Below are positions 1 through 13,947 of a stretch of 14,014 bases of DNA, one piece after another. The stretch comes from Armatimonadia bacterium (GTDB lineage Bacteria; Armatimonadota; Zipacnadia; Zipacnadales; UBA11051). Both the position numbers and the translations under genes were made by a program. How positions within the stretch are numbered: the first letter of the stretch is position 1; each line of letters opens with the position of its first letter. Under the pieces are notes generated by a model. The model was not told the origin of the DNA. It saw only the letters and a program-made list of their open reading frames with translations, and searched no databases. The DNA lies in NCBI GenBank assembly GCA_039683575.1, contig JBDKRC010000214.1, positions 1 through 14,014 on the forward strand. The letters are read 5' to 3'.

Positions 1-19
1 CGGGGGGCTACGCCCCCCG
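1..19. other. Perfect 8-bp GC stem-loop (CGGGGGGC-TAC-GCCCCCCG), possible mRNA stabiliser or pause upstream of tadE-like gene
   Basis: 1-8 pairs perfectly with 12-19. No U-tract follows, and upstream context is outside the window. Confidence 0.4.
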
Positions 20-117
20 TGGCGGCCATCTGCTCATGGGAGGCTACTTCAACTACTTGCTTCTTCGCAGCCGTAAGTGACGGCACCGGCGGGGCCGCGG
101 AAGTTGGACCTGACGAG

Positions 118-591
118 ATGAAAGAGCAATTATCCCCTTCACCTGATGCCGGATGTCGGAAACGGGGAAGCATCACGGTGGAGATGGCGATCGTCACCCC
201 CCTGCTCGTCTTCCTGCTGTTCGGAATCATCGAAGGGGGGTGGATAGCAAGAGACACTCTTGTGCTCGCTTCGGCGTGCCGCGAGGCGGCACGCATAGCC
301 AGCCTGGGGCGCTCCTGCTCACAGATCAGTGCCTGTGCGCGCGCTGCGGCGTGCTCACTGGCAGCGGGCGACATTACAGTGCAGGTTGAGTGCCAGTCGT
401 CAGGCGGAGGCGGGTGGACGGAACTCACCGATACGGCCGAGGGCACCAACTCCGCCATGCCCGGCGGCCAGGTCCGGGTAACACTGACATACCCCCATCA
501 ACTGGTCTGCGGGCCGCTCATGTCGTTGTTCGCGGACGCAGGCGGTAGTACCCGAACTATCCGCAGTACGATGGTCGCCATGAGGGAGTAA
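118..591 (+). CDS. tadE: TadE/TadF-like pseudopilin
   Basis: RKRG|SITVEMAIVTPLLVFLLFGIIE is a prepilin-type cleavage site with Glu+5 and a hydrophobic helix, followed by ACREAARIAS (TadE-like motif). ATG 118 preferred over GTG 19. TAATG overlap with the next gene. Confidence 0.85.
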   Translation: MKEQLSPSPDAGCRKRGSITVEMAIVTPLLVFLLFGIIEGGWIARDTLVLASACREAARIASLGRSCSQISACARAAACSLAAGDITVQVECQSSGGGGWTELTDTAEGTNSAMPGGQVRVTLTYPHQLVCGPLMSLFADAGGSTRTIRSTMVAMRE

Positions 592-1628
592 TGGTGGCGA
601 GGCGGACGACCATGATCAGGAGCAGTGATCTCAGCGAATGGACAGCGCGCGGCGGCTCGATCACACTTCAGGTAGCGCTTGCCCTGGTGGTGCTGGTCAC
701 ATCTGCCGCGTTGTGTTTTGACGTGGGCCAGACTGTCGTTGCGGCACAGATCGCGCAGCGAACAGCAGACGCCGCGGCGCTGGCCGGTGCCTGGGGGGCA
801 ATCACCGGTGCCGAGGCCGCAGCCTCCGACCGCGCCACGAGCATTGTGGCGGCCAACGGCGCAACCTGTTCCTACCCTCTGGCTGTGCCGCCATCCGGAA
901 TCATCTGCTTAGGTTCGGGCTCTGCCATCCCAGGCTACCGCACCCTCACCGCGGGGGAGGAAGCGATCACCGTTCCGGTGAGCGCCTATGTAACGTTCCA
1001 TTTCGCCCCCCTCTTTGGCCTCAACTCCATGACAGTCGTACGGTCGGCCACCGTGGCGCGGGTGCATGCGGCCGGCGCTCCCATTGCCCCCATGTGGATC
1101 AGCAACTCCACCCCCCTCATCGCGGGCACCGACGTGGAGTTGCACGCCAGTACCGCTGAGATTGAGCCTATTCCGGCCGGGAACTTCGGCTGGTTGGAGC
1201 CGCAAGCAGGCGACTTCCGAATGCTCCTGAGTGGCTACCAGATCCCAGACGACATCCGCCTTGCCAATTACGTGCAGGTTGGAGACACCGTGGACGCACG
1301 CACGGGGCAGCAGGTGGGCAATTGGACCAAGACACTCGAAGACCGCCTGGCCCGTGCCACCCTGCCCCCATACTCCAGCCAAACTCCAACAGAAGGCGGC
1401 TATACCGAAGACAACCCGCGTCTTCTGACGATCCCGCTGGTCACAGTCATTGGGGGAGTGGGAACCAACGCCAGCTTTCGCGTCGAGAGGTTCGCCGTGT
1501 TCTGGCTGAAGTCGGTGAGGGGTGGCTCGTCCAAGTCCATTATGGGTGAGTTCCTGCGCTATGATGTGCCGCTGCAGCCGGACACTGCGCAAGACACAGG
1601 GATCTGGACCGTGAGACTGGTTGACTAG
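591..1628 (+). CDS. TadG-like Flp pilus assembly protein (N-terminal Tad domain)
   Basis: N-terminal GGSITLQVALALVVLV...DVG...AQRTADAAALAGA matches the Tad domain pattern, and a GNFGWL motif lies in the C-terminal part. Alternative start ATG 612. Confidence 0.8.
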   Translation: MVARRTTMIRSSDLSEWTARGGSITLQVALALVVLVTSAALCFDVGQTVVAAQIAQRTADAAALAGAWGAITGAEAAASDRATSIVAANGATCSYPLAVPPSGIICLGSGSAIPGYRTLTAGEEAITVPVSAYVTFHFAPLFGLNSMTVVRSATVARVHAAGAPIAPMWISNSTPLIAGTDVELHASTAEIEPIPAGNFGWLEPQAGDFRMLLSGYQIPDDIRLANYVQVGDTVDARTGQQVGNWTKTLEDRLARATLPPYSSQTPTEGGYTEDNPRLLTIPLVTVIGGVGTNASFRVERFAVFWLKSVRGGSSKSIMGEFLRYDVPLQPDTAQDTGIWTVRLVD

Positions 1629-1675
1629 ATTCGCCCTGCCGGCGGCGGGTTCATCACGAAAAGAGACAACGATCG

Positions 1676-2869
1676 ATGCGACTGGTGCTGTGCGAAAACG
1701 AACCAGGAGATGCGGATCGGCTCATCCAGGCGCTTGGCGACACGACGTCTGTCGAGGTGGTTGGGATCGCCCGGGACGGGCTTGAGTGCGCCATGATGGT
1801 GACACAGCTACGGCCTGACCTCGCGCTGATCAGGGCGAACATGGCTGCACTTGATGGTGGCCGGGTCGCCCGCCTCAACGCTCTGACCTCTCCTGACACG
1901 ATCTCTGTGCTCGTTGCAGATGATGAGGCTGCCGCCAACGGCCTGCTCAAGGCCGCCATGCGTTCCGGGGCCAGAGCCGTAACCCATCTGGATGCTGATC
2001 CGGCCCAACTGGTGGGGACGTTGCAGGAACTCCTCCAACTCAGGCCCTCGCGCACGGACGACGACTACCTGCTGGTGAGCGATCCCAGACGTCTGCCAGT
2101 GACGATATCAGTGACGGGGTCCAAAGGTGGGATTGGGAAGACCACCACGGCGACGAACCTCGCCCTGGCCATGCAGCAGCGCTTCCCGGGCCAGGTGGTC
2201 CTGGTGGACTTTGTCGGCCACTATGGCGACATAAGCCTGATGCTCGATCTGAAGCCGCAGAATAACATCCTGGACCTCGCTGGGCTCAAGGAACTGGATG
2301 CCGATATTGTCCAGCCGATGGTATCAGTTCATTCCAGCGGCCTGCACGTGATGGCGGGCGTCAACAGCGCCGATACCCTGACGGCCACTGGAAGACTGTC
2401 ACCGATGCACGTAGCCGGTCTGCTCGGTGTCTTGCGGCGGATCTACCGGATCATCGTGATCGACGTTCCGGCCCTCGCGTACCCGCTGAGCCAATACCTC
2501 TACCAGCGCAGCACGTACATCTGCCTACTCACCTGTCTTTCAGACCTGACAACAGTCCGGAGCACGGCCTCTTTGATGCAATCACTGCTTGCCCAGAGAA
2601 TCCCGGCCAACCGCGTCAAGCTGGTGGTCAGTCGCCATGACACGCGGGACACGTATTCGGTCGCCCAACTGGAGGATTCGCTGAAACATCAGGCGGCCGT
2701 GCTGATCCCCGCGGCCGACGAGGTCGCGACGACCGCCCTGAACCGGGGGATCCCCTATGTGCTGGGCAAGCCGACCTCCCCCCCGGCGATGGCCATTGGA
2801 CACCTGGCGGACCTGATAGTGCGGGACATGGAAGCTGCGGCCCAGGCCGCCTTGGGGAACACCAGGTAA
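1676..2869 (+). CDS. cpaE: CpaE/TadZ-like pilus localisation protein (atypical receiver domain + MinD/ParA ATPase)
   Basis: Receiver-like N-terminus, deviant Walker A GSKGGIGKTT, VVLVD and IIVIDVP motifs, located directly upstream of cpaF. Confidence 0.85.
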   Translation: MRLVLCENEPGDADRLIQALGDTTSVEVVGIARDGLECAMMVTQLRPDLALIRANMAALDGGRVARLNALTSPDTISVLVADDEAAANGLLKAAMRSGARAVTHLDADPAQLVGTLQELLQLRPSRTDDDYLLVSDPRRLPVTISVTGSKGGIGKTTTATNLALAMQQRFPGQVVLVDFVGHYGDISLMLDLKPQNNILDLAGLKELDADIVQPMVSVHSSGLHVMAGVNSADTLTATGRLSPMHVAGLLGVLRRIYRIIVIDVPALAYPLSQYLYQRSTYICLLTCLSDLTTVRSTASLMQSLLAQRIPANRVKLVVSRHDTRDTYSVAQLEDSLKHQAAVLIPAADEVATTALNRGIPYVLGKPTSPPAMAIGHLADLIVRDMEAAAQAALGNTR

Positions 2870-2894
2870 GCCTGCGAGGAGTCAACCACGCACG

Positions 2895-4202
2895 ATGAAT
2901 GCGACCATCCAGGAACTCGCGTCCGAAGCGCCTGACACAATGGATTCGGACCTCGATGAGCTCAAACGCCTCATTCATGACAGGCTGCTGCGTACTACCG
3001 ATATGGCCGCGCTGCAGAAGATGGATGACAAGCGGTTGAGCGCTCGCATCTCAGAGCTTGCCGCCGAGGCCATCGCCGAACAGGGAGAGCACCTCTCGCA
3101 TCGCGCCAGGGAGCAACTCGAGACCGAGGTGCTCAATGAAGTCATCGGTTACGGACCAATTCAGGAGTTCATTGCCGATCCGAGCGTCAGCGAGATCATG
3201 GTGAACGGTCCTCACCAGATAGTGGTTGAGCGTGATGGCGTGCTGGAGTTCACCGGAAGGACTTTCACCGACGATGCCCACATCCGGCGCATCATCGAGA
3301 AGATCGTCAGCCCCCTTGGCCGCCGCATTGATGAAAGCACGCCGATGGTGGATGCCCGACTGCCCGACGGCTCGCGCGTCAACGCGATCATCCCCCCCCT
3401 GTCGCTCGAGGGCGCCTGCCTGACCATCCGCAAGTTCCCGCAGGAGCACCTGAGCCCGCAGGACCTGATGAACTTCGGCACACTGTCAGAGCAGATGTGC
3501 CATTTTCTCGAGGCTTGCGTAACTTCGCGCCTCAATATCATGGTGAGTGGAGGAACCGACAGCGGCAAGACCACGCTCCTCAACGTGCTCTCGTCATTCA
3601 TACCCGAACAGGATCGCATCGTCAGCATCGAGGATGCCGCGGAGCTTCGCCTCCAGCAGCGCCACCGCGTGCGTCTGGAGAGCCGTCCTGCCAACATCGA
3701 GGGCCACGGCGCCATTACCATCCGCGATCTTGTCCGCAATGCTCTGCGCATGCGACCAGACCGCATCATTGTGGGTGAAGTCCGCGGGGCTGAGGCTCTC
3801 GACATGCTGCAGGCAATGAACACCGGACACGAGGGTTCTCTCTCAACCCTGCACTCCAACAGCCCCCGCGACACCGTCTCCCGCTTGGAGACTATGGTGA
3901 TGATGGCGGGCATGGACTTGCCGCTGATGGCGATACGTGAGCAGATCGCGCGGGCCCTGCACCTGATCGTTCATCTGGCCCGGTTTCGCGACGGCAGTCG
4001 CCGCGTTGTCAGCATCGTCGAGGTCCAGCGAATGGAGAATGACCAGGTCGTGCTGCAGGACCTGTTCCAGTTCGACCGCACTGGGATCGATGAAAACGGC
4101 AGGATTACAGGGACCTTCCGCTCTTCCGGCGTCCGGCCGCTGTTCACGAACATACTGAAGGCCGAGGGAGTGGACCTGCCTGCCGATGTGTTTGCCCTGT
4201 AG
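2895..4202 (+). CDS. tadA: CpaF/TadA pilus assembly ATPase
   Basis: EIMVNG, PMVDARLPDGSRVNA, Walker A GGTDSGKTT, IEDAAEL, ALRMRPDRIIVGEVRGAEA and AMNTGHEGSLSTLH motifs. SD GAGGAG at 2876-2881. Confidence 0.97.
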   Translation: MNATIQELASEAPDTMDSDLDELKRLIHDRLLRTTDMAALQKMDDKRLSARISELAAEAIAEQGEHLSHRAREQLETEVLNEVIGYGPIQEFIADPSVSEIMVNGPHQIVVERDGVLEFTGRTFTDDAHIRRIIEKIVSPLGRRIDESTPMVDARLPDGSRVNAIIPPLSLEGACLTIRKFPQEHLSPQDLMNFGTLSEQMCHFLEACVTSRLNIMVSGGTDSGKTTLLNVLSSFIPEQDRIVSIEDAAELRLQQRHRVRLESRPANIEGHGAITIRDLVRNALRMRPDRIIVGEVRGAEALDMLQAMNTGHEGSLSTLHSNSPRDTVSRLETMVMMAGMDLPLMAIREQIARALHLIVHLARFRDGSRRVVSIVEVQRMENDQVVLQDLFQFDRTGIDENGRITGTFRSSGVRPLFTNILKAEGVDLPADVFAL

Positions 4203-4221
4203 GCCAGGCGGAGGAAAGACA

Positions 4222-5184
4222 ATGCTTTGGCTATTGCCGGTGCTCTCGGGGGTTTTCGGGGCCGCCTCGCTGATCATGTTCATCTGGGCGATCCTGATTG
4301 CCGACTCCGAGTCAGGGATGCGGCTGGCTGCGGCCATGCAGGAGGTGAAGCCGTCCGCCGTCACCCCGCCACCGGGCTCGGAGCCGTGGGAGACAGCCGA
4401 CCGAGCCTCAGGTATCTCGCGGATGATAGCGCGCTTGCCCTGGGTGGATCGTCTCCAGGTGCAACTTCTCAGAGCAGGCTGGCTGCTCAAGCCGTCGGAG
4501 TTCATTGCCTTCAGCACACTGGGCGCGCTGCTGCTGGCTGCTCTGTTCATGCTGGTCACCGGCTCAAGCTGGATGGGCATCCCGGGCCTGCTTATTGCCT
4601 TCTGTATCGTCTGGCTGGCCCTCAAGTCACGCCAGGCGAGCCGCAACAGGGCCTTGAGCGCGCAACTGCCCGATGTCCTGGACATGCTGTGTTCATCGTT
4701 GCGGGCCGGCTTCTCCGTCGGCCAGGCAATGAACCGCGTTCAGGGGCAAATGCCCCCTCCCATCGCAACTGAGTTCCGCCACGCCCTTGAGGAGATGCGC
4801 CTCGGCAGGTCCCTTTCAGACGCTCTGGAGACCATGGTCGCGCGCACCTCGAACTACGACCTCGCGCTGGTCGTATCTGCCGTCCAAACCCAACTTGAAA
4901 TAGGCGGCAATATCGCCGAGGTGCTGTCGAATATCGCCTCGATGATCCGCGAGCGCGTCAAGCTCAAGGGAGAGATTGCGGTGGCCTCCGCCGAGGGGAG
5001 ACTCTCAGCGATTGTGCTGCTCGCAATGCCCATAGGCATGGCCCTGATCATCCGCCTCATGAACGGTTCATATCTGGATCCTTTGGTCAGCACCACCGAG
5101 GGCAGGCTCATGCTGGCCACGGGAGCGGTTCTGATGGTTCTCGGAGCGGCGATTCTCAACAAACTCACCGCGATAGAAGTCTAG
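4222..5184 (+). CDS. tadB: TadB inner-membrane platform protein (T2SS F family)
   Basis: QLPDVLDMLCSSLRAG, GGNIAEVLSNIASMIRER and SAEGRLSA motifs plus TM helices. ATG 4222 has SD GGAGG at 4210-4214, a better start than 4186. Confidence 0.93.
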   Translation: MLWLLPVLSGVFGAASLIMFIWAILIADSESGMRLAAAMQEVKPSAVTPPPGSEPWETADRASGISRMIARLPWVDRLQVQLLRAGWLLKPSEFIAFSTLGALLLAALFMLVTGSSWMGIPGLLIAFCIVWLALKSRQASRNRALSAQLPDVLDMLCSSLRAGFSVGQAMNRVQGQMPPPIATEFRHALEEMRLGRSLSDALETMVARTSNYDLALVVSAVQTQLEIGGNIAEVLSNIASMIRERVKLKGEIAVASAEGRLSAIVLLAMPIGMALIIRLMNGSYLDPLVSTTEGRLMLATGAVLMVLGAAILNKLTAIEV

Positions 5185-5219
5185 CCAGCCGGCAATGGGG
5201 CAACGGGGGCAGGTCGCAA

Positions 5220-6152
5220 ATGGTTATTGAGTATCTCATCATTGGGTGTTCGGCTCTTGCCGCAATTATGCTCTACCTCGCGGCCAGGTCACGGGAGGAC
5301 GTGGTGGTCCAGCGGCTTGATGCAGCGATGCGGACCGGTGGCCTGGTAATGTCGGGCAGCAGCATCGATGACAGCCTTTCGCGTTCGCCATACCCGCGGT
5401 TGATCGCGCCTCAACTGGGGCGCCTGCGTGACGCTGCAGCAGGGATTGTCCCGCCGCAAGCAATGGCTCGCATCCGTGCCAGACTGGAGCGCGCGGGCCG
5501 CACCGGCCCCTGGGCCAGCGTCTGCTTCATACTGGTCAAGGTGGGGCTTTTGCTGCTGGGCATAGGGGCGGTCCTGCTGACCATGCACTTCTATGGCGGC
5601 TCCCGGCTGATTGGCGCTCTGATCAGCACTTCCCTGATGCTGGGCGCGCTGTACGCGCCTGAAGCCGGACTGAACATGCTGATCCGCAGGCGACACGATG
5701 AGATCAGGCGCTCGCTTCCGGACGTGATTGATCTCCTGGCGGTGAGTGCGGAGGCCGGGGCGGGCCTTGATGGCTCCCTCGGCACTGTAGCCCGCCGCAA
5801 ACCGGGTGCCCTGTCAGATGAGTTCAACCGGCTGCTACTCGAGGTGAGGCTGGGCAAGGGCCGTGACGAGGCCTGGGCTGATCTCGCTGAACGGGTGGAC
5901 CTCCCGGAACTGCGATCCTTCGTATCGGCGCTTGAGCAGGCTGAGGAGATGGGCGTCAGCATTGCGAACACGCTGCGCGTCCAGTCCGATGCCATCAGAA
6001 TCAAGCACAGCCTGCTGATTCGTCAGCAGGCTGCGACGTTGGCCCTTCGAATGCTGTTCCCCCTCGTCTTCTGCATCCTTCCGGCGCTGTTTGTGGTAGT
6101 TCTCGGCCCCGGCCTCATCTCAATCCACAGGGCGATGAGCGCAACGCACTAG
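5220..6152 (+). CDS. tadC: TadC inner-membrane platform protein (T2SS F family)
   Basis: LPDVIDLLAVSAEAGAGLD, QAEEMGVSIANTLRVQS and MLFPLVFCILPALFVVVLGP motifs; follows tadB. Confidence 0.93.
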   Translation: MVIEYLIIGCSALAAIMLYLAARSREDVVVQRLDAAMRTGGLVMSGSSIDDSLSRSPYPRLIAPQLGRLRDAAAGIVPPQAMARIRARLERAGRTGPWASVCFILVKVGLLLLGIGAVLLTMHFYGGSRLIGALISTSLMLGALYAPEAGLNMLIRRRHDEIRRSLPDVIDLLAVSAEAGAGLDGSLGTVARRKPGALSDEFNRLLLEVRLGKGRDEAWADLAERVDLPELRSFVSALEQAEEMGVSIANTLRVQSDAIRIKHSLLIRQQAATLALRMLFPLVFCILPALFVVVLGPGLISIHRAMSATH

Positions 6153-6820
6153 GCGGGCAATCCGTGGCCAAGGCTGAGCGCGCTCTCCACCAGAAAGATC
6201 GCGGCGTCCGCCCGCAGATTCGACAGGAAATGCACTTCCCGGCACCCCCCTTCCCCCACCGTCCGTAGGGGAATCTCCCGCACCAGCCGCAGGTCAGCCA
6301 CCTGACAGAAGTCCCGGAAGTCTTTGATCGTCGTCAAGTGGATGTTGGGCGTGTCGTACCACTCGTACGGCAGCCGCCCAGTCTTGGGCATCCGCCCGCC
6401 GAACAGGAGCTGTGCCCGCGCCGACCAGTGCGCGAAGTTCGGCAGGGTAATCACGCACTGCTTGCCAACCCGCGCCATCTCCTTGATCAGGAGCAGTGGG
6501 CGGTGCAGCACCTGGATTGTGTTGGTCAAGAGGACGTAGTCAACCGACTGGTCTGCATAGTCGGCCAACCCCTGATCCAGGTCGCCATGGATGATGCTGG
6601 TCAATCCCCGCGCCACGCATGCCTGAATGCACCGCTCGGACAGCTCCAGGCCCTGTGCCCTGACCTGCTTTTCGCGGATCAGCGCCTCCAAAAGCTCCCC
6701 ATTCCCGCAGCCAAGGTCCAGCACGCTGGTACCCCGTGCCACCAGGTCAATGATGTATCGGAAGTCCTGCCGCGGACATCCCGCCAGCTGTTCAGACAGA
6801 ATCTCTGCTTCATTTGCCAT
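6149..6820 (-). CDS. metW: Methionine biosynthesis protein MetW (SAM-methyltransferase fold)
   Basis: VLDLGCGNG, PNFAHW, GRMP and LPYEWYDTPNIHLTTIKDF motifs; starts 3 nt downstream of the metX stop. Confidence 0.95.
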   Translation of the reverse strand: MANEAEILSEQLAGCPRQDFRYIIDLVARGTSVLDLGCGNGELLEALIREKQVRAQGLELSERCIQACVARGLTSIIHGDLDQGLADYADQSVDYVLLTNTIQVLHRPLLLIKEMARVGKQCVITLPNFAHWSARAQLLFGGRMPKTGRLPYEWYDTPNIHLTTIKDFRDFCQVADLRLVREIPLRTVGEGGCREVHFLSNLRADAAIFLVESALSLGHGLPA

Positions 6821-6823
6821 CAG

Positions 6824-7957
6824 CTAACTCCTCTCCTGGCCCGCTAGGAAGCTGCGAACCAGACTTGTCAGGCTGTCCGCCTCCAGCAAGAAGGCGTCGT
6901 GCCCATAGTCCGTCTCGATCTCCGTGTACACGACCTCGCGACCATTCTGCCGGAGCGCCGTGACGATCTCTCGGGACTGATACGACGGGAACAGCCAGTC
7001 CGAGGAGAACGAGATCACCAGGAACTTGGCCTGCGTCTTCTCAAAGGCCGTCCGCAGCGATCCGTAGGCGCGTGTCAGGTCGAAGTAGTCCATCGCCTTG
7101 GTGATGTACAGGTACGAGTTTGCGTCAAACCGCTTCACAAAGCTGTCGCCCTTGTAGTGCAGGTAGCTCTCCACCTGGAAATCGGTTACGAAGTCGTAGC
7201 CGTATTCCGCCTTATCCTGCAGCCTCCGCCCGAATTTGTGGTGCATGGACTGGTCGGACAGGTACGTGATGTGCCCGACCATCCGCGCAATGGACAGACC
7301 GTGGACGGGGATGCTCTTGCCGTAGTACTCCCCGTCCCTCCAGTCCGGATCGGACATAATCGCCTGCCGCCCCACTTCATCGAACGCAATCGCCTGCGGC
7401 GACAGGCAGTGCGTGGTGGCGATGGGCAGCACCAAGCGCACGCGCTCGGGGTAGCTCACCGCCCACTGCAGCGCCTGCATCCCGCCCATGGACCCGCCCA
7501 CGACGGCGCACAACTCGTCAATCCCCAAGTGCTCCACCAGCGCCCGCTGCGCATGCACCATGTCCTCAACGGTAATAACGGGAAAAGACAGGGCATATGG
7601 GCGCCCTGTCTTGGAATTCACGCTGGAAGGCCCGGTGGACCCTTTACAGCCGCCGATGATGTTCGAGCAGATGACAAAGTACTTGTTGGTATCGAAAGCC
7701 CGCCCCGGCCCGATCATCACCTCCCACCAACCGGGGGCCTTCTCCTCGGGGCTGTTGTACCCCGCCACATGCGCATCCCCCGACAGCGCGTGGCACACCA
7801 GGATAGCGTTGTCTTTCGCCGCATTCAGCTCGCCGTAGGTCTCATAGGCCAGCGTAACCGGACCCAGAATCTGCCCATTGGCGAGCACCAGTCCGCCGGG
7901 TGCTTCGGCGAAGGTGAAGTACTTGGTCTCGACTATCCCGACCGATCCGTTGTCCAT
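6824..7957 (-). CDS. metX: Homoserine O-acetyltransferase (MetX, alpha/beta hydrolase fold)
   Basis: [16 protein letters not shown], nucleophile [21 protein letters not shown] and GHDAFLLE motifs. ATG 7957 has SD GAGGT; the longer track ORF (to 8020) runs into the REP element. Confidence 0.96.
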
Positions 7958-7977
7958 GATCCCAACCTCTTTCATCC

Positions 7978-8055
7978 CGCGTAGGCGGGTTCGTCTCGAA
8001 CCCGCGGTTCCACAACCCACGTGGGGTGCGGGTTCGAGACGAACCCGCCTACGCG
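7978..8055. repeat. REP doublet (REPIN-like): two inverted GTAG-type REP hairpins
   Basis: Perfect 28-bp inverted repeat at 7978-8005 and 8028-8055. Each arm is GTAG + GCGGGTTCG-TCT-CGAACCCGC. The 22-nt spacer contains the palindrome CCCACGTGGG. Confidence 0.85.
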
Positions 8056-8070
8056 ACGGATTTGCGGGGA

Positions 8071-9369
<1,299 letters not shown>

Positions 9370-9418: not shown

Positions 9419-10126
9419 CTAAAACTGGTGGGTAAAGGCCACCGCGAACTGGTTGTCCAGCCCGTCGTTGACGCGGGCGAGGCCGGCGTCTATCGTGGTT
9501 TCGGCGTCTACCGTGTACCGGATTGCGATGTCCTTCCAGTCGTCAACCTCCGGCTGCCCGTAGTACTCCACGCCTGCGATCAGCTTAGGCGTCGCCTGCA
9601 CGCCCAGGAAGCCTCCAAACTGCAGTGAGTGCGAGGTGTCCTTGCCGAAGAGGCCCGAGCCGATGCCGTTGGTGTAGCGGGCCGTCACGCTGGCAATGAT
9701 GGGCTTCTTCGCCGGGAAGATCTTGGTGGCGGCCACGTAGAAGTCACTCGTGGTCGGGCCGCTGGTGGCGTCACGGACGATTGTGCCAATGGCCACCGCC
9801 GGCTTCTCGCCTCTGAATGGCACCGCGATGTACTTGGCGTGGAAGATGTTGAACTCGTTCTGCCCGCCGGCGTTCAAATCGGCGCGTGTCAGACCGACCT
9901 CGAGGTTCTTCGCGGCGCCGTAGGTCACGCCAAAGGTAGTCAGGGAGCCCACTGGCTGCAGGTTCAGGTAATGGCCGGAGACCGACGTCTTGCCTTCGGC
10001 GAGATCGATCGCGAGCGGGTTGAGGAAGACGCCGGTGGGGCCTTCCCAAGTGCCCTGGGCATGGACCGCGGTGACTGCGGAAGCGATCGTCAGTACGGCA
10101 ACGGCAAACAGAATGCTGCTTTTCAT
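9419..10126 (-). CDS. Exported protein, probable outer-membrane beta-barrel of unknown function (YjbH/DUF3034-like)
   Basis: Sec signal MKSSILFAVAVLTIASAVTAVHA|Q, N-terminal EGPTGVFLNPLA, alternating amphipathic beta-strands and C-terminal VAFTHQF (terminal Phe beta-signal). SD GAAAGG before ATG 10126. Family name is tentative. Confidence 0.7.
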   Translation of the reverse strand: MKSSILFAVAVLTIASAVTAVHAQGTWEGPTGVFLNPLAIDLAEGKTSVSGHYLNLQPVGSLTTFGVTYGAAKNLEVGLTRADLNAGGQNEFNIFHAKYIAVPFRGEKPAVAIGTIVRDATSGPTTSDFYVAATKIFPAKKPIIASVTARYTNGIGSGLFGKDTSHSLQFGGFLGVQATPKLIAGVEYYGQPEVDDWKDIAIRYTVDAETTIDAGLARVNDGLDNQFAVAFTHQF

Positions 10127-10143
10127 GGAAGTAGCCTTTCGCA

Positions 10144-10163
10144 CAGCGCCGCCAAGGGCGCTG
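10144..10163 (-). promoter_or_regulatory. 7-bp stem-loop immediately 5' of the beta-barrel gene SD
   Basis: On the minus strand CAGCGCC-CTTGGC-GGCGCTG, followed by TGCGAAAGG. Confidence 0.45.
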
Positions 10164-10382: not shown

Positions 10383-11336
10383 CTAGATATCCACCCGCTC
10401 CAACTCCGCCGGATCATAGGCAAACAGCTCTGTGGACAGGTACCGCTCGCCGGTGTCAGGCAGCACCACGACGATCAGCTTGCCCACATTCTCGGCGCGC
10501 GCGGCGATCTGCAGGGCCGCGTTTGTGGCAGCCCCCGATGACACGCCGGCCACGATTCCCTCGGTGCGGGCCAACTGCCGCGCGGTCGCTATGGCGTCCT
10601 CGCTGGTCACTTTGATGATCTCATCCACCAGTTCTCGCCGCAGTACCTTCGGCACAAAACCGGCTCCGATGCCCTGGATCTTGTGCGGCCCTGGTGCGCC
10701 GCCCGACAGGACAGGGGACTCTGCCGGCTCGACCGCGATCAACTGCAACTCCGGCTTGACCGGCCGCAACGCCTCGCCGATGCCCGTCAGGGTCCCGCCC
10801 GTGCCCACACCGCCGACCACAATATCTACCGCGCCACGCGTGTCCCGCCAGATCTCCGGCCCCGTCCCCATCCGGTGTGCGTACGGGTTGGCCAGATTCT
10901 CAAACTGCTGCAGTAGCAGATACTTCTCATCTGACGCCGCAAGCTGCTCGGCATAGGCCACTGCTCCCTTCATCCCCTTAGCCGCCGGCGTCAGGATCAG
11001 CTTCGCGCCCAACGCCACCAACAGCCGCCGTCGTTCCTCAGTCATGCTCTCGGGCATCACCAGAGTCAGCGCATATCCCCGGACCGCCGCCACCAGCGCC
11101 AGACCGATCCCTGTGTTACCGGAAGTCGGCTCTAGCAACACCGTATCATCCTTGATGCGCCCGATTGCCTCCGCCGCCTCGATCATCGTCAGCCCGATCC
11201 GCTCCTTCACACACGACAGCGGGTTGAACGACTCCACCTTCGCGACCACCCGTCCCGGCAGCCCTTCGGCCAAGCGGTCCAGGTACACCAGCGGGGTGTT
11301 TCCGATCAACTCAGTGATGTTGGTTGCGATAGCCAT
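10383..11336 (-). CDS. cysK: Cysteine synthase A (O-acetylserine sulfhydrylase)
   Basis: IGNTPLV, PLP-lysine [47 protein letters not shown] and [10 protein letters not shown] motifs. SD GAGGTG. Confidence 0.97.
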
Positions 11337-11354
11337 TTCGCCACCTCTTTTTTC

Positions 11355-11382
11355 ACTAACTACATAGAGTTAGTGTAGATTA
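11355..11382 (-). promoter_or_regulatory. Candidate operator copy 1 in cysK 5' leader (TAATCTACACTAACTCTATGTAGTTAGT)
   Basis: Same 28-nt TAAT...AGwTAGT frame as the copies at 11433-11460 and 11567-11594; internally dyad-symmetric. Confidence 0.45.
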
Positions 11383-11432
11383 AAGATAACAGGCAAAAAA
11401 AGAGAGAGCTTGGTGCCCTACACTCACTGCCC

Positions 11433-11460
11433 ACTATCTCTACTTTGTTGGGTGGGATTA
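11433..11460 (-). promoter_or_regulatory. Candidate operator copy 2 overlapping cysK -10/+1 (TAATCCCACCCAACAAAGTAGAGATAGT)
   Basis: Shares TAAT-N12-AGTwGAGATAGT with the copy at the hydE promoter. Confidence 0.55.
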
Positions 11461-11485
11461 TGTACATTGTCTCGGTCCGTGTCAA
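11457..11485 (-). promoter_or_regulatory. Sigma70-type promoter for the cysK-met operon
   Basis: TTGACA (11485-11480), 17-nt spacer, CATAAT (11462-11457). Confidence 0.7.
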
Positions 11486-11543
11486 CAACTATTTTTCTGC
11501 CCGCCACATACCCCTCCACCGAACGCCTGATCATTGCTCACGC

Positions 11544-11572
11544 TTGACTCGTAGACAGTTTATCAATAATAT
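11544..11572 (+). promoter_or_regulatory. Sigma70-type promoter for hydE-larE
   Basis: TTGACT (11544-11549), 17-nt spacer, TAATAT (11567-11572). SD AGGAGAGG lies before ATG 11611. Confidence 0.7.
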
Positions 11573-11594
11573 CCATTGGAATAGTTGAGATAGT
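11567..11594 (+). promoter_or_regulatory. Candidate operator copy 3 overlapping hydE -10/+1 (TAATATCCATTGGAATAGTTGAGATAGT)
   Basis: Matches copy 2. An additional tandem half-site AGTTGGGATAG sits at 11592-11602. Confidence 0.55.
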
Positions 11595-11610
11595 TGGGAT
11601 AGGAGAGGTA

Positions 11611-12666
11611 ATGACAGCCCTGACGCCTGAAGCCCTATCCGCCGCAACCGCCCCCGACCTTGCGGCTCTGCTCGAAACCTCCGACCCCGCGGTCGCCGAC
11701 GCGCTGTTAGCCGCCGCCGATACCACCCGCCGCGAACACCTCGGCGATGGCGTCCAACTCCGCGCGCTCATCGAGTTTTCGAACCATTGCACTCGCACCT
11801 GCCACTACTGCGGCCTCCGCGCCGCCAATGAGGCAATTCCGCGCTACCGCATGCCTTTGGAGGAGATCGTCCAGGCCGCCCTCCGGGCCAGCGCCCTCGG
11901 GTATCAGACTGTTGTACTTCAATCCGGCGAGGACCCCTGGTACACATGCGACCGCGTCTCGTGGCTCGTGCGCGAGATCAAGGCACAGACCGGCACGGCC
12001 ATCACCATCTGCCTCGGCGAGCGCCCTCGCGACCACTACGCAGCCTGGCGCGACGCCGGGGCCGACCGCTATCTCCTGCGCATCGAAACCAGCAGTTCTG
12101 TCCTCTACCATGCCCTGCACCCGGGTATGTCCTTCGGCAACCGTCTGCGCTGCTTGCAGACGCTCAAGGCACTGGGCTACCAGCTTGGCTCCGGCATCCT
12201 CATCGGCCTCCCCGGCCAGACCCCGCTGCTGCTCGCCAAAGACCTCCTCTTCCTCCGCGACCTGCAGCCCGACATGGTCGGCATGGGGCCCTTCATCTCC
12301 CACCCGCAGACTCCGCTTGCCCACCAGCCCGGCGGTGCCCTTGACCTCACCCTGCGCATGATGGCCTTGGCGCGGCTCTTCCTCCCCGGCTGCCATCTCG
12401 TCGCTACCACGGCCCTCGGCAGCATTGACCCGCTCGGACGCGAGCGCGGCCTGCAGGTCGGCGCCAACGTCCTGATGCCCAACGCCACGCCCCGCCAGTA
12501 CCGCGCCGACTACGAGATCTATCCGAACAAGATATGCCTGGACGAAGAGCCCGAACACTGCCGCGGCTGTATCGAAGGCCGCCTCAATACCATCGGCCGC
12601 CACGTCGCCTCGGGCCCCGGCCATGCCACCAGACTGGAGCAGCACCCATGCCCGACACAGCACTGA
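11611..12666 (+). CDS. hydE: HydE-type radical SAM enzyme ([FeFe]-hydrogenase maturase HydE/BioB-like family)
   Basis: RALIEFSNHCTRTCHYCGL (CxxxCxxC), VVLQSGED, RYLLRIET, IGLPGQ, GPFISHPQTPL, ATTAL, GANVLMPN, YEIYPNK and a C-terminal Cx7Cx2C auxiliary-cluster motif. Confidence 0.88.
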   Translation: MTALTPEALSAATAPDLAALLETSDPAVADALLAAADTTRREHLGDGVQLRALIEFSNHCTRTCHYCGLRAANEAIPRYRMPLEEIVQAALRASALGYQTVVLQSGEDPWYTCDRVSWLVREIKAQTGTAITICLGERPRDHYAAWRDAGADRYLLRIETSSSVLYHALHPGMSFGNRLRCLQTLKALGYQLGSGILIGLPGQTPLLLAKDLLFLRDLQPDMVGMGPFISHPQTPLAHQPGGALDLTLRMMALARLFLPGCHLVATTALGSIDPLGRERGLQVGANVLMPNATPRQYRADYEIYPNKICLDEEPEHCRGCIEGRLNTIGRHVASGPGHATRLEQHPCPTQH

Positions 12667-13490
12667 CAACCAAATACGCCGCCCTGCGCGAGCACTTGCA
12701 GCAACTTGGCAGCGTTGTCGTCGCCTTCTCGGGCGGCGTGGATAGCTCGCTGCTACTTGCCGTGGCCCATGAGGCACTGGGCGACAAGGTGCTCGCCGCG
12801 ACCGAAGTCTCACCCATGTACGCCGCCGAAGAACTGCAGCGCGCCCAGACCTTCGCCCGGAGCCTCGGCGTCCGCCACGCCCTGATCGAGACCACTCTCG
12901 ATGTTCCCCAGGTGCTCGCCAACGCCCCGGACCGCTGCTATCACTGCAAGCGCAGCCTCTTTTGCGTACTCCTCACCCGAGCTGCGGCCGAGGGCCTCGC
13001 CCATGTGGTCGAGGGCGCCCACGCCGACGACGTCGGCGACTATCGCCCCGGCCTGCGCGCTGCCGAGGAGCTTGGCATCAAGGCCCCCCTCCGCGACGCC
13101 GGCTTCACAAAGAGCGACATCCGCGAACTCTCGCGCCGACTGGACCTCCCCACCGCCGATCTGCCCGCCCAGGCGTGCCTGGCTTCGCGCTTCCCGTATG
13201 GCAGCCCAATCACCGCTGAGAAACTCCAGCAAGTGGCACGCGCCGAAGCCAGCCTTCGCGCCCTCGGCTTCGCTACCATCCGCGTCCGTCACTACGGCGA
13301 CCTCGCCCGCCTGGAAATACCCACCGTTGATCTCCCCCGCCTATTCAGTAACCAAACGCGAGACGGCGTGGTCGCTGCTGTCAAAGAGGCCGGCTTCACC
13401 TACGTCACCGCCGATCTCCAAGGCTTCCGCTCCGGCAGCATGAATGAGGTTCTCAGTGGAAATGCTTCACCCCGGGGAACATCTATTTAG
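12648..13490 (+). CDS. larE: LarE-family ATP-dependent sulfur transferase (PP-loop), with Cys triad of [4Fe-4S]-type LarE
   Basis: AFSGGVDS PP-loop, RCYHCK, DYRPG, ACLASRFPYG, RVR and GFRSGSMN motifs. ATG 12648 with SD GGAG overlaps the hydE end by 19 nt. Confidence 0.9.
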   Translation: MPDTALTTKYAALREHLQQLGSVVVAFSGGVDSSLLLAVAHEALGDKVLAATEVSPMYAAEELQRAQTFARSLGVRHALIETTLDVPQVLANAPDRCYHCKRSLFCVLLTRAAAEGLAHVVEGAHADDVGDYRPGLRAAEELGIKAPLRDAGFTKSDIRELSRRLDLPTADLPAQACLASRFPYGSPITAEKLQQVARAEASLRALGFATIRVRHYGDLARLEIPTVDLPRLFSNQTRDGVVAAVKEAGFTYVTADLQGFRSGSMNEVLSGNASPRGTSI

Positions 13491-13539
13491 TCAATCGCCG
13501 TTGTAGACATCACAGCCAACGCAAACGGATGCCGCTCGA

Positions 13540-13947
13540 ATGCGTATTGCCGACCTGCTAACAATCCTCGCTCTCGTCCTCTCGACCCTGACGCTGTCGA
13601 GCGCACACCCATGCTTGCCGCTCTCCCCCACGCCCCACCTGCGTGCTCAGGCTTCCGACTGCTGCTGCGCTCCCACCCACTGCGACTGCCACAAGCCTTG
13701 CCTTGGCTCTTCCACTCAGCCGAATGACACCTCAGTTGCAGCCCCAACCTCGACTGATGGGACCTACTTGCTCGCGCTGACCGCTGCTATTGCCGGTGTG
13801 GGCACCCCTGTACTCCTCGATCCGGCCCTGCGCCTCTCGCCGGGTGCTGTCGGCCCCTTCGCCTCGCATCACGCTGCCTGTCTCGGCACTAGTGTCTCGC
13901 CTTCCAAAAAGCTAGACAGTTACACGGCCCTCGGCTGGCCGGTATAG
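13540..13947 (+). CDS. Exported Cys/His-rich small protein, probably 3'-interrupted by an IS after about codon 117
   Basis: Signal-like N-terminus and the DCCCAPTHCDCHKPC cluster. No clear SD. The last ~18 codons overlap the putative IS end and the transposase 3' end on the opposite strand. Confidence 0.55.
   Translation: MRIADLLTILALVLSTLTLSSAHPCLPLSPTPHLRAQASDCCCAPTHCDCHKPCLGSSTQPNDTSVAAPTSTDGTYLLALTAAIAGVGTPVLLDPALRLSPGAVGPFASHHAACLGTSVSPSKKLDSYTALGWPV

Follow-up and report, generated by a model that had tools for sequence, protein, structure and literature searches.

Contig JBDKRC010000214.1 of an Armatimonadia bacterium (Armatimonadota; Zipacnadia; Zipacnadales; UBA11051; assembly GCA_039683575.1, here genome G000) is 14,014 bp long and was analysed in full; this window is one of 352 contigs in a 6.23 Mb assembly that is 96% complete. 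Towards its right end are the two overlapping, rightwards-transcribed genes that are our subject. The first, hydE1 (11611-12666, plus strand), encodes a 351-residue radical S-adenosylmethionine (SAM) enzyme of the HydE family, auxiliary-cluster subtype, and the second, larE1 (12648-13490, plus strand), encodes LarE, an ATP-dependent sulfur transferase with a PP-loop, in its [4Fe-4S] form. Genes for cysteine and methionine synthesis lie beside them and are transcribed leftwards (minus strand). The nearest is cysK, coding for cysteine synthase A (10383-11336; TIGR01139, 429 bits, cut-off 351), which is divergent from hydE1. It is followed by a gene for a DUF3034-like protein (9419-10144) and then by metY, an O-acetylhomoserine sulfhydrylase gene (8071-9363; TIGR01326, 682.6 bits), metX, a homoserine O-acyltransferase gene (6824-8020; NF001209, 541.5 bits), and metW (6149-6820; TIGR02081, 234 bits).

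A preliminary description of this DNA had reported a 19-nt overlap between hydE1 and larE1, and the overlap is real: the TGA stop codon of hydE1 occupies 12664-12666 and the larE1 start that agrees with its homologues is the ATG at 12648 (MPDTALTTKY...). As an overlap of this kind implies co-transcription, we infer that the two genes form an operon with translationally coupled frames and a promoter of its own. None of the 14 other open reading frames (ORFs) scanned in the window is a hyd or lar gene, so the pair does stand next to cysteine and methionine genes with no hyd or lar partner adjacent, as first described. A near-identical strain (~95-97% identity), represented by independent metagenome DNA contigs, spans both the cysK/hydE and the hydE/larE junctions (X1 record 4, 10921-12663; X3 record 27, 11541-12837). 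Metatranscriptome run X10 gives contigs only at 12939-13136 and 13380-13559, within larE1 and on its 3' side, plus short cysK fragments; the contigs are short, and the missing cover over hydE1 counts neither way.

HydE1 and LarE1 retain the features of their families

The two gene identities given in the preliminary description stand. HydE1 scores 364.6 bits on the HydE model TIGR03956 (equivalog cut-off 254.6), the next models being PylB (135 bits) and BioB (92 bits), and it aligns over nearly its full length (residues 19-333, 342 bits) with the Thermotoga maritima HydE chains (PDB 3cix, 7o1p). The radical SAM CX3CX2C site (C60/C64/C67) is invariant in a 50-sequence alignment, as are M222 and M289, which a reading of the pairwise alignment equates with M224 and M291 of T. 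maritima HydE. HydE1 also shares with the T. maritima enzyme a C-terminal CX7CX2C auxiliary-cluster site (C309/C317/C320). A review (PMC10114646) names M224 and M291 as conserved residues, divides HydE into a subset that has the auxiliary cluster and one that lacks it, relates a proposed channel from HydG through that cluster, and takes up the possibility that HydE is a cysteine desulfurase of the radical SAM kind. Of the 76 columns with at least 90% conservation in 49 other HydE sequences, the whole HydE1 clade described below retains 71. The five that deviate do not do so consistently within the clade, and no clade-defining residue change is found among the 76.

LarE1 scores 314 bits on TIGR00268 (cut-off 150) and 180 bits against the LarE of Lactiplantibacillus plantarum (PDB 5udq). 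Its PP-loop ATP site is SGGVDS at residues 28-33, and its CXXC...C ligands (C97/C100/C177) are invariant in 28 sequences. Both the SGGxDS and the CXXC...C motifs are those defined for the [4Fe-4S]-type LarE of T. maritima in PMC9283937. That paper also has IscS plus cysteine working and Na2S failing as the sulfur source in vitro, and leaves the physiological donor of cluster-type LarE unsettled. With the sacrificial LarE of L. plantarum, LarE1 shares Ser/Arg/Arg at the positions aligned to S180/R212/R214, which bind the phosphate of the mononucleotide of pyridinium-3,5-biscarboxylic acid (P2CMN); these positions are invariant or nearly so in the LarE family alignment. A predicted complex of HydE1 and LarE1 scored 0.00 against a mark of 0.32, in a run that was made without controls and counts neither for nor against binding.

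The remaining hyd and lar genes are elsewhere in the genome

The preliminary description called the pair stand-alone, which is correct for the window; genome-wide it is not, as all the other hyd and lar genes are present together with a second hydE and a second larE. The second HydE (HydE2; contig C93, 325 bits) is 48% identical to HydE1 and is encoded after a hybrid histidine kinase gene. The second LarE (LarE2; contig C323, 311 bits) is 57% identical to LarE1. HydG (709 bits), HydF (557 bits) and five HydA-type (PF02906) ORFs are on other contigs than hydE1, so that G000, like T. maritima, encodes HydG, HydF and HydA-type proteins. Two LarA, one LarB and one LarC are also encoded, as is a HydG-like paralog whose 315 bits are just over the 312-bit cut-off (C12:6880-10444, between two HydA-type ORFs). 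The hyd and lar genes outside the window are dispersed over different contigs. It had been put forward that the novelty of the pair would fall if these were the only hydE and larE of the genome, with the other hyd and lar genes elsewhere; the second part describes the genome, and the first does not. We also considered that HydE1 and LarE1 might be sulfur-sparing isoforms and rejected the idea, since cysteine plus methionine counts separate the paralogs poorly (HydE1 19 and HydE2 21; LarE1 7 and LarE2 10).

Two HydE paralogs in one order

By its neighbours in the HydE tree and by a DUF1559 protein the organism would fall in Planctomycetota. Comparisons were made across the order, which has 67 genomes, with co-occurrence of hyd and lar genes counted over 41 of them. 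Of these 41 relatives, 26 have HydE, 25 have HydG and 25 have HydF, in the same genera except for two single incomplete genomes (G029 and G036), and 37 have LarE. A HydE at least 61% identical to HydE1 is encoded by seven of the 67 genomes: G000, G001, G002 and G004 (family f1), G017 (f3), G032 (f2) and G042 (f5). Outside the order, no HydE more than 57% identical to HydE1 was found in a 401-genome sample of the phylum.

In a 55-row tree (quick IQ-TREE, with Shimodaira-Hasegawa-like approximate likelihood ratio test [SH-aLRT] support only and a midpoint root) the HydE1-type proteins form clade A (SH-aLRT 98) and the HydE2-type proteins clade B (SH-aLRT 99, 13 rows). Clade C holds families f4, f6 and f7 and groups with named Pirellulales and Thermoguttaceae metagenome-assembled genomes (MAGs); clade A joins clade B, clade C and one Myxococcota MAG at an unresolved node. 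HydE1 and HydE2 are two long-lived HydE paralogs, of which HydE2 keeps to hydG-hydE-hydF clusters. The auxiliary-cluster CX7CX2C motif is present in 5/6 HydE1-type and 0/13 HydE2-type proteins.

In the genomes checked (6/6), a HydE1-type gene is accompanied by HydG. G001 encodes HydG and HydF, and its sole HydE is of the HydE1 type; no HydE was found in the 1.45 kb after its hydG. The only hydG-related item near any HydE1-type gene is a HydG-like gene of G002, 34% identical, which lies beside hypA about 2.5 kb from hydE1 (L031:2360-4432; 267 bits, below cut-off). Such a second HydG-like gene (245-334 bits) is present in many relatives.

Neighbourhoods of hydE1-type genes

The gene orders around the seven HydE1-type genes differ, and sulfur genes recur among them. 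Where the window has cysK divergent from hydE1-larE1, G001 has Rrf2-hydE1-larE1, and G002 has cysK, the DUF3034-like gene (here OMP, for outer-membrane protein), metY, metX, metW and hydE1 all on one strand, with Rrf2-larE1 at a separate place. In G032 the order is tusA-like, thiF/moeB, larE, hydE1, cysK, OMP and metY, with overlaps or a 7-nt gap between genes. In G004 a gene for a fused NfnAB/GltD-like oxidoreductase is divergent from hydE1 and is followed by one for a CHAD protein. The G017 contig is just 1.5 kb long and has no larE after hydE1, the 290 nt that follow containing no LarE N-terminus. G042 has no recognisable neighbours. Rrf2-larE1 is also present in G003, where HydE1 is absent. 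Thus 4/7 HydE1 loci adjoin cysK/metYXW, larE, Rrf2 or tusA-like/thiF genes, the OMP gene keeps its place between cysK and metY in G000, G002 and G032, and the cysK-OMP-metY block is borne beside hydE1 in three different arrangements.

Apart from the window, 74 HydE-bearing loci were fetched, six of the HydE1 type and 68 others. Links to larE, cysK or met genes are seen at three of the six and at two of the 68, both of them loose: in G032 a larE is situated about 5 kb from the hydGEF cluster, and on metagenome contig L104:1-1866 an ORF for a metW-like methyltransferase (40% identical) is directly upstream of a distant HydE (45% identical). Direct adjacency of hydE and larE is found in three of 24 relatives that have both genes, and that of hydE1 and larE occurs in two families in opposite gene order. 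Among the LarE matches listed (150 of 312), no such adjacency is seen in the 28 planctomycete genomes outside the order that have a listed position for both genes. Flanks of up to 8-9 kb around more distant HydE genes (41-60% identity; 26 genome and 19 metagenome loci) contain no larE, cysK, metY or metX. The recurring linkage that the preliminary description called for is thus partly conserved, within this one order only.

The G032 operon deserves closer description. Its tusA-like ORF encodes 87 residues with a DLRCP motif (PF01206, 26.2 bits, below the 28.6 cut-off) and abuts a gene for a 259-residue ThiF/MoeB-like E1 with CxxC pairs, directly upstream of larE (L040:1351-2394). Sulfur-relay thiolation systems of the TtuA/TtuB/TtuC type combine a PP-loop [4Fe-4S] enzyme with a ThiF-type E1 and carriers, and protein thiocarboxylates serve cysteine and methionine synthesis in the CysO-CysM and HcyS-MetY types. 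Like these, the G032 operon joins a TusA-like carrier and an E1 to LarE, HydE1, CysK and MetY. It differs from them in that no ThiS/MoaD-like carrier was identified in it. The window lacks tusA and thiF: none of its ORFs is a ThiF/MoeZ-type E1 or a ThiS/CysO-like or TusA-like carrier, and tblastn with the G032 ThiF has no match in G000 (E<1e-8).

LarE history

In 10/10 further genomes of the order that were fetched (L133-L142) larE is followed directly by nadB, and the same order is seen at LarE2 of G000 and at the LarE of G004, which continues into larA, making 12 genomes in all. The link makes sense, nicotinic acid adenine dinucleotide being the compound from which the nickel-pincer cofactor is made. 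LarE1 differs from this resident larE of the order in being linked to Rrf2 and/or hydE1. In a 40-row tree it groups with the single LarEs of G001, G002 and G003 (support 95) as a genus-level clade, separate from LarE2 and the G004 protein and also from the LarE that adjoins hydE1 in G032. G001, G002 and G003 each encode LarA, LarB and LarC, and their only LarE is of the LarE1 type, so the Rrf2-linked LarE1 must supply the LarE function in these genomes.

Promoters and possible Rrf2 control

A sigma-70-like promoter for hydE1-larE1 (TTGACT-17-TAATAT; 11544-11572, plus strand), proposed from its match to the consensus only, lies 39 nt before the ATG, and one for cysK (TTGACA-17-CATAAT; 11457-11485, minus strand) is conserved in the congener G002. 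Each is followed by a related element: AGTTGAGATAGTTGG (11583-11597, plus strand; in 10-mer form GTTGAGATAG) lies 11 nt after the -10 hexamer of hydE1, and GTAGAGATAGTGGG (11430-11444, minus strand) lies 13 nt after that of cysK. The two pair as a 15-nt inverted repeat (I1) that is 87% complementary. A 10-mer GTWGAGATAG (GT[AT]GAGATAG) is common to the cysK, hydE1 and Rrf2 promoters of G000, in each case just past the -10 hexamer. The Rrf2 promoter contains a perfect palindrome, ATCTCTA-N9-TAGAGAT, and has GTAGAGATAG 13 nt after its -10 hexamer; the cysK promoter carries the same 10-mer, GTAGAGATAG, at the same distance.

The Rrf2 ortholog of G000 is unlinked to hydE1-larE1 (C347:35241-35693). 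Rrf2 proteins of this group have three cysteines, and their highest-scoring named matches, to CymR (108 bits) and to IscR (92 bits), do not reach the cut-offs. The shared 10-mer is compatible with common control of cysK, hydE1-larE1 and the Rrf2 gene by Rrf2, which we offer as a tentative suggestion.

Relative to the window, the strain contigs of runs X1-X3 have a 9-nt deletion at 11580, adjoining the GTTGAGATAG element in the 5' region of hydE1, and numerous substitutions throughout the cysK-hydE1 intergenic region. The 5' leader of cysK (11337-11455, minus strand, ~120 nt) is predicted to fold stably (-38.5 kcal/mol, z -3.85), with a perfect hairpin of 8 bp (11354-11375) and a second, terminator-like one with a T-run (11419-11405). 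The leader matches no Rfam family and shows little conservation in G002, and may act as an attenuator or as a riboswitch of a new kind.

Interpretation

A plausible scenario, to which we give a little better than an even chance, has HydE1 and LarE1 as canonical maturases whose genes were taken into a regulon for sulfur or Fe-S status that is peculiar to the lineage. Canonical functions are most likely for both proteins, since all the family features that can be tested in sequence are kept and each type is the sole family member in relatives that have the pathway. HydE1 would then act on Fe(Cys)(CO)2(CN), the synthon made by HydG, and break the C-S bond of its cysteine as a step towards the [2Fe] subcluster of [FeFe] hydrogenases. 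LarE1 would adenylate the P2CMN carboxylates and exchange them for sulfur carried by its [4Fe-4S] cluster, so making the precursor of the nickel-pincer nucleotide. We propose that hydE1, larE1 and cysK-OMP-metY-metX-metW are grouped because the lineage gathered Fe-S maturases that consume cysteine sulfur. The regulon would respond to sulfur or Fe-S status, would be headed in congeners by a three-cysteine Rrf2 regulator, and would bring HydE1 and LarE1 together without a shared reaction. That maturases had been recruited into a sulfur regulon was one of two proposals in the preliminary description, and it fits the links at 4/7 HydE1 loci as compared with the two loose cases in 68 other HydE loci.

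Several observations weigh against this reading. Two HydE paralogs occur together in at least five genomes of four families (G000, G002, G017, G032 and G042), and as lasting redundancy is unusual, some specialisation is likely. None of the seven HydE1-type loci has an adjoining hydG or hydF, compared with hydG and/or hydF in the fetched flanks of 8/13 HydE2-type and 10/11 clade C loci. The sole-HydE status of G001 is not certain, since that genome is only 90% complete, and the hydG contig of G004 stops 234 nt past hydG. On the regulatory side, the 10-mer has 33 matches genome-wide where ~9 are expected, the other 30 lying in GC-rich, coding-looking contexts, and the element is absent from the cysK promoter of G002. 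The persistence of the paralogs, the uncoupling from hydG and hydF and the repeated arrival at the cysK-metY block argue that HydE1 is at least a specialised isoform, and they would also accommodate a part shared with LarE in a sulfur relay.

The second proposal of the preliminary description was such a joint role, in sulfur insertion or the making of a new thio-cofactor. In the form that we consider, HydE1 would be a radical SAM C-S lyase acting on cysteine or a cysteine adduct and passing the sulfur to LarE1, at the open iron site of its [4Fe-4S] cluster. LarE1 might then thiolate adenylated P2CMN or another acid, or feed CysK or MetY, perhaps by way of a thiocarboxylate, and in G032 the TusA-like carrier and the ThiF-type E1 would take part. 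The G032 operon, in which tusA-like, thiF, larE, hydE1 and cysK are so tightly packed, is the most suggestive evidence for a relay of this sort. It is joined by the distinctness of clade A, kept alongside HydE2 and away from hydG and hydF, by the three arrangements round the cysK-OMP-metY block, and by larE standing beside hydE1 in three genomes and in both orders. Two papers are also congenial to it, one in leaving the sulfur donor of cluster-type LarE unsettled (PMC9283937) and the other in discussing HydE as a cysteine desulfurase (PMC10114646). We nonetheless consider a joint reaction distinctly improbable. It finds no direct support, and no feature of either sequence requires new chemistry. 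The five deviating HydE columns are not consistent in the clade, and three congeners with LarA, LarB and LarC have no LarE besides the LarE1 type. Moreover, the LarE adjoining hydE1 in G032 does not group as sister of the LarE1 clade, hydE1 and larE are not adjacent in G002, G004, G017 or G042, adjacency is 0/28 in planctomycete genomes outside the order among the matches listed, and G000 yields no ThiF homologue by the tblastn search.

HydE1 could instead be an isoform that serves a particular hydrogenase, HydG-like paralog or set of conditions, with its larE and cysteine/methionine neighbourhood reflecting shared transcription only. The division of the auxiliary-cluster motif between the two paralog types favours this, in line with the two HydE subsets and the proposed channel from HydG in PMC10114646, and candidate partners exist in the five HydA-type ORFs of G000 and in the second HydG-like gene of many genomes, that of G002 lying near hydE1 and hypA. 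But the HydG-like gene and HydE1 do not strictly go together, G003 having only the former and G017 having HydE1 and just one HydG match. The HydG-like gene of G000 is on another contig between HydA-type genes, and we think this explanation unlikely. That the adjacency arose by chance through genome shuffling, with no regulatory or functional meaning, has little probability. All hyd and lar genes are dispersed in G000, gene order varies among congeners and hydE/larE adjacency is rare (3/24), as shuffling would have it; against this stand the co-transcription implied by the 19-nt overlap, the recurrence of the hydE1/larE pair in two families in opposite order, the three arrangements at the cysK-metY block and the excess of sulfur-gene links at HydE1 loci over other HydE loci.

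Among the papers listed by full-text searches, none was found that links HydE with LarE or cysK as a module, papers on hydE, cysK and hydrogenase together being judged by titles and abstracts. HydE1 departs from the T. maritima system in that its gene is not clustered with hydG or hydF and its clade is restricted to one order, coexists with a second HydE and lies among cysteine/methionine, larE, Rrf2 or tusA/thiF genes. If the regulon reading is true, the locus exemplifies scattered metallocofactor maturases wired into a sulfur or Fe-S-status regulon, and a HydE annotation away from hydG and hydF need not signal a new function. If a joint relay operates, loading of the LarE cluster by HydE1 would be the physiological sulfur donor of cluster-type LarE. 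The HydE1 clade provides a handle on the reasons for an auxiliary cluster in some HydE proteins and for the persistence of paralogs. It provides one also on the in vivo sulfur source of cluster-type LarE, and here the G032 operon offers the best natural entry.

Other features of the window and related sulfur genes

The left part of the window (1-6152, plus strand) is occupied by tad pilus genes. The DUF3034-like protein between CysK and MetY is probably an outer-membrane barrel, since it has a signal peptide and a C-terminal Phe, and a sulfur compound may pass through it. Downstream of larE1, close to the contig end at 14014, a 135-residue ORF (13540-13947, plus strand) encodes a signal peptide together with a Cys-rich stretch, DCCCAPTHCDCHKPC; it matches no family and is without a paralog in the genome.

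An Rfam scan of the window (E<=1) shows no riboswitch or known RNA near cysK or hydE. Sub-threshold matches are seen at ~7964-8061 between metY and metX (E 1.5e-5 and 2.3e-5), with one further match at E 0.98. As the matches at ~7964-8061 fall on both strands, they suggest a long palindrome or hairpin in the 50-nt metY/metX intergenic gap, and the microRNA names attached to them are surely spurious.

Among the other sulfur genes of G000, we note a second Rrf2-family gene with a second cysK immediately after it (C150:16787-18167), a possible CymR-CysK-type pair; this cysK has 62% identity to that of the window. A third cysK-like gene is present on C237 and a second metY-like gene on C331.

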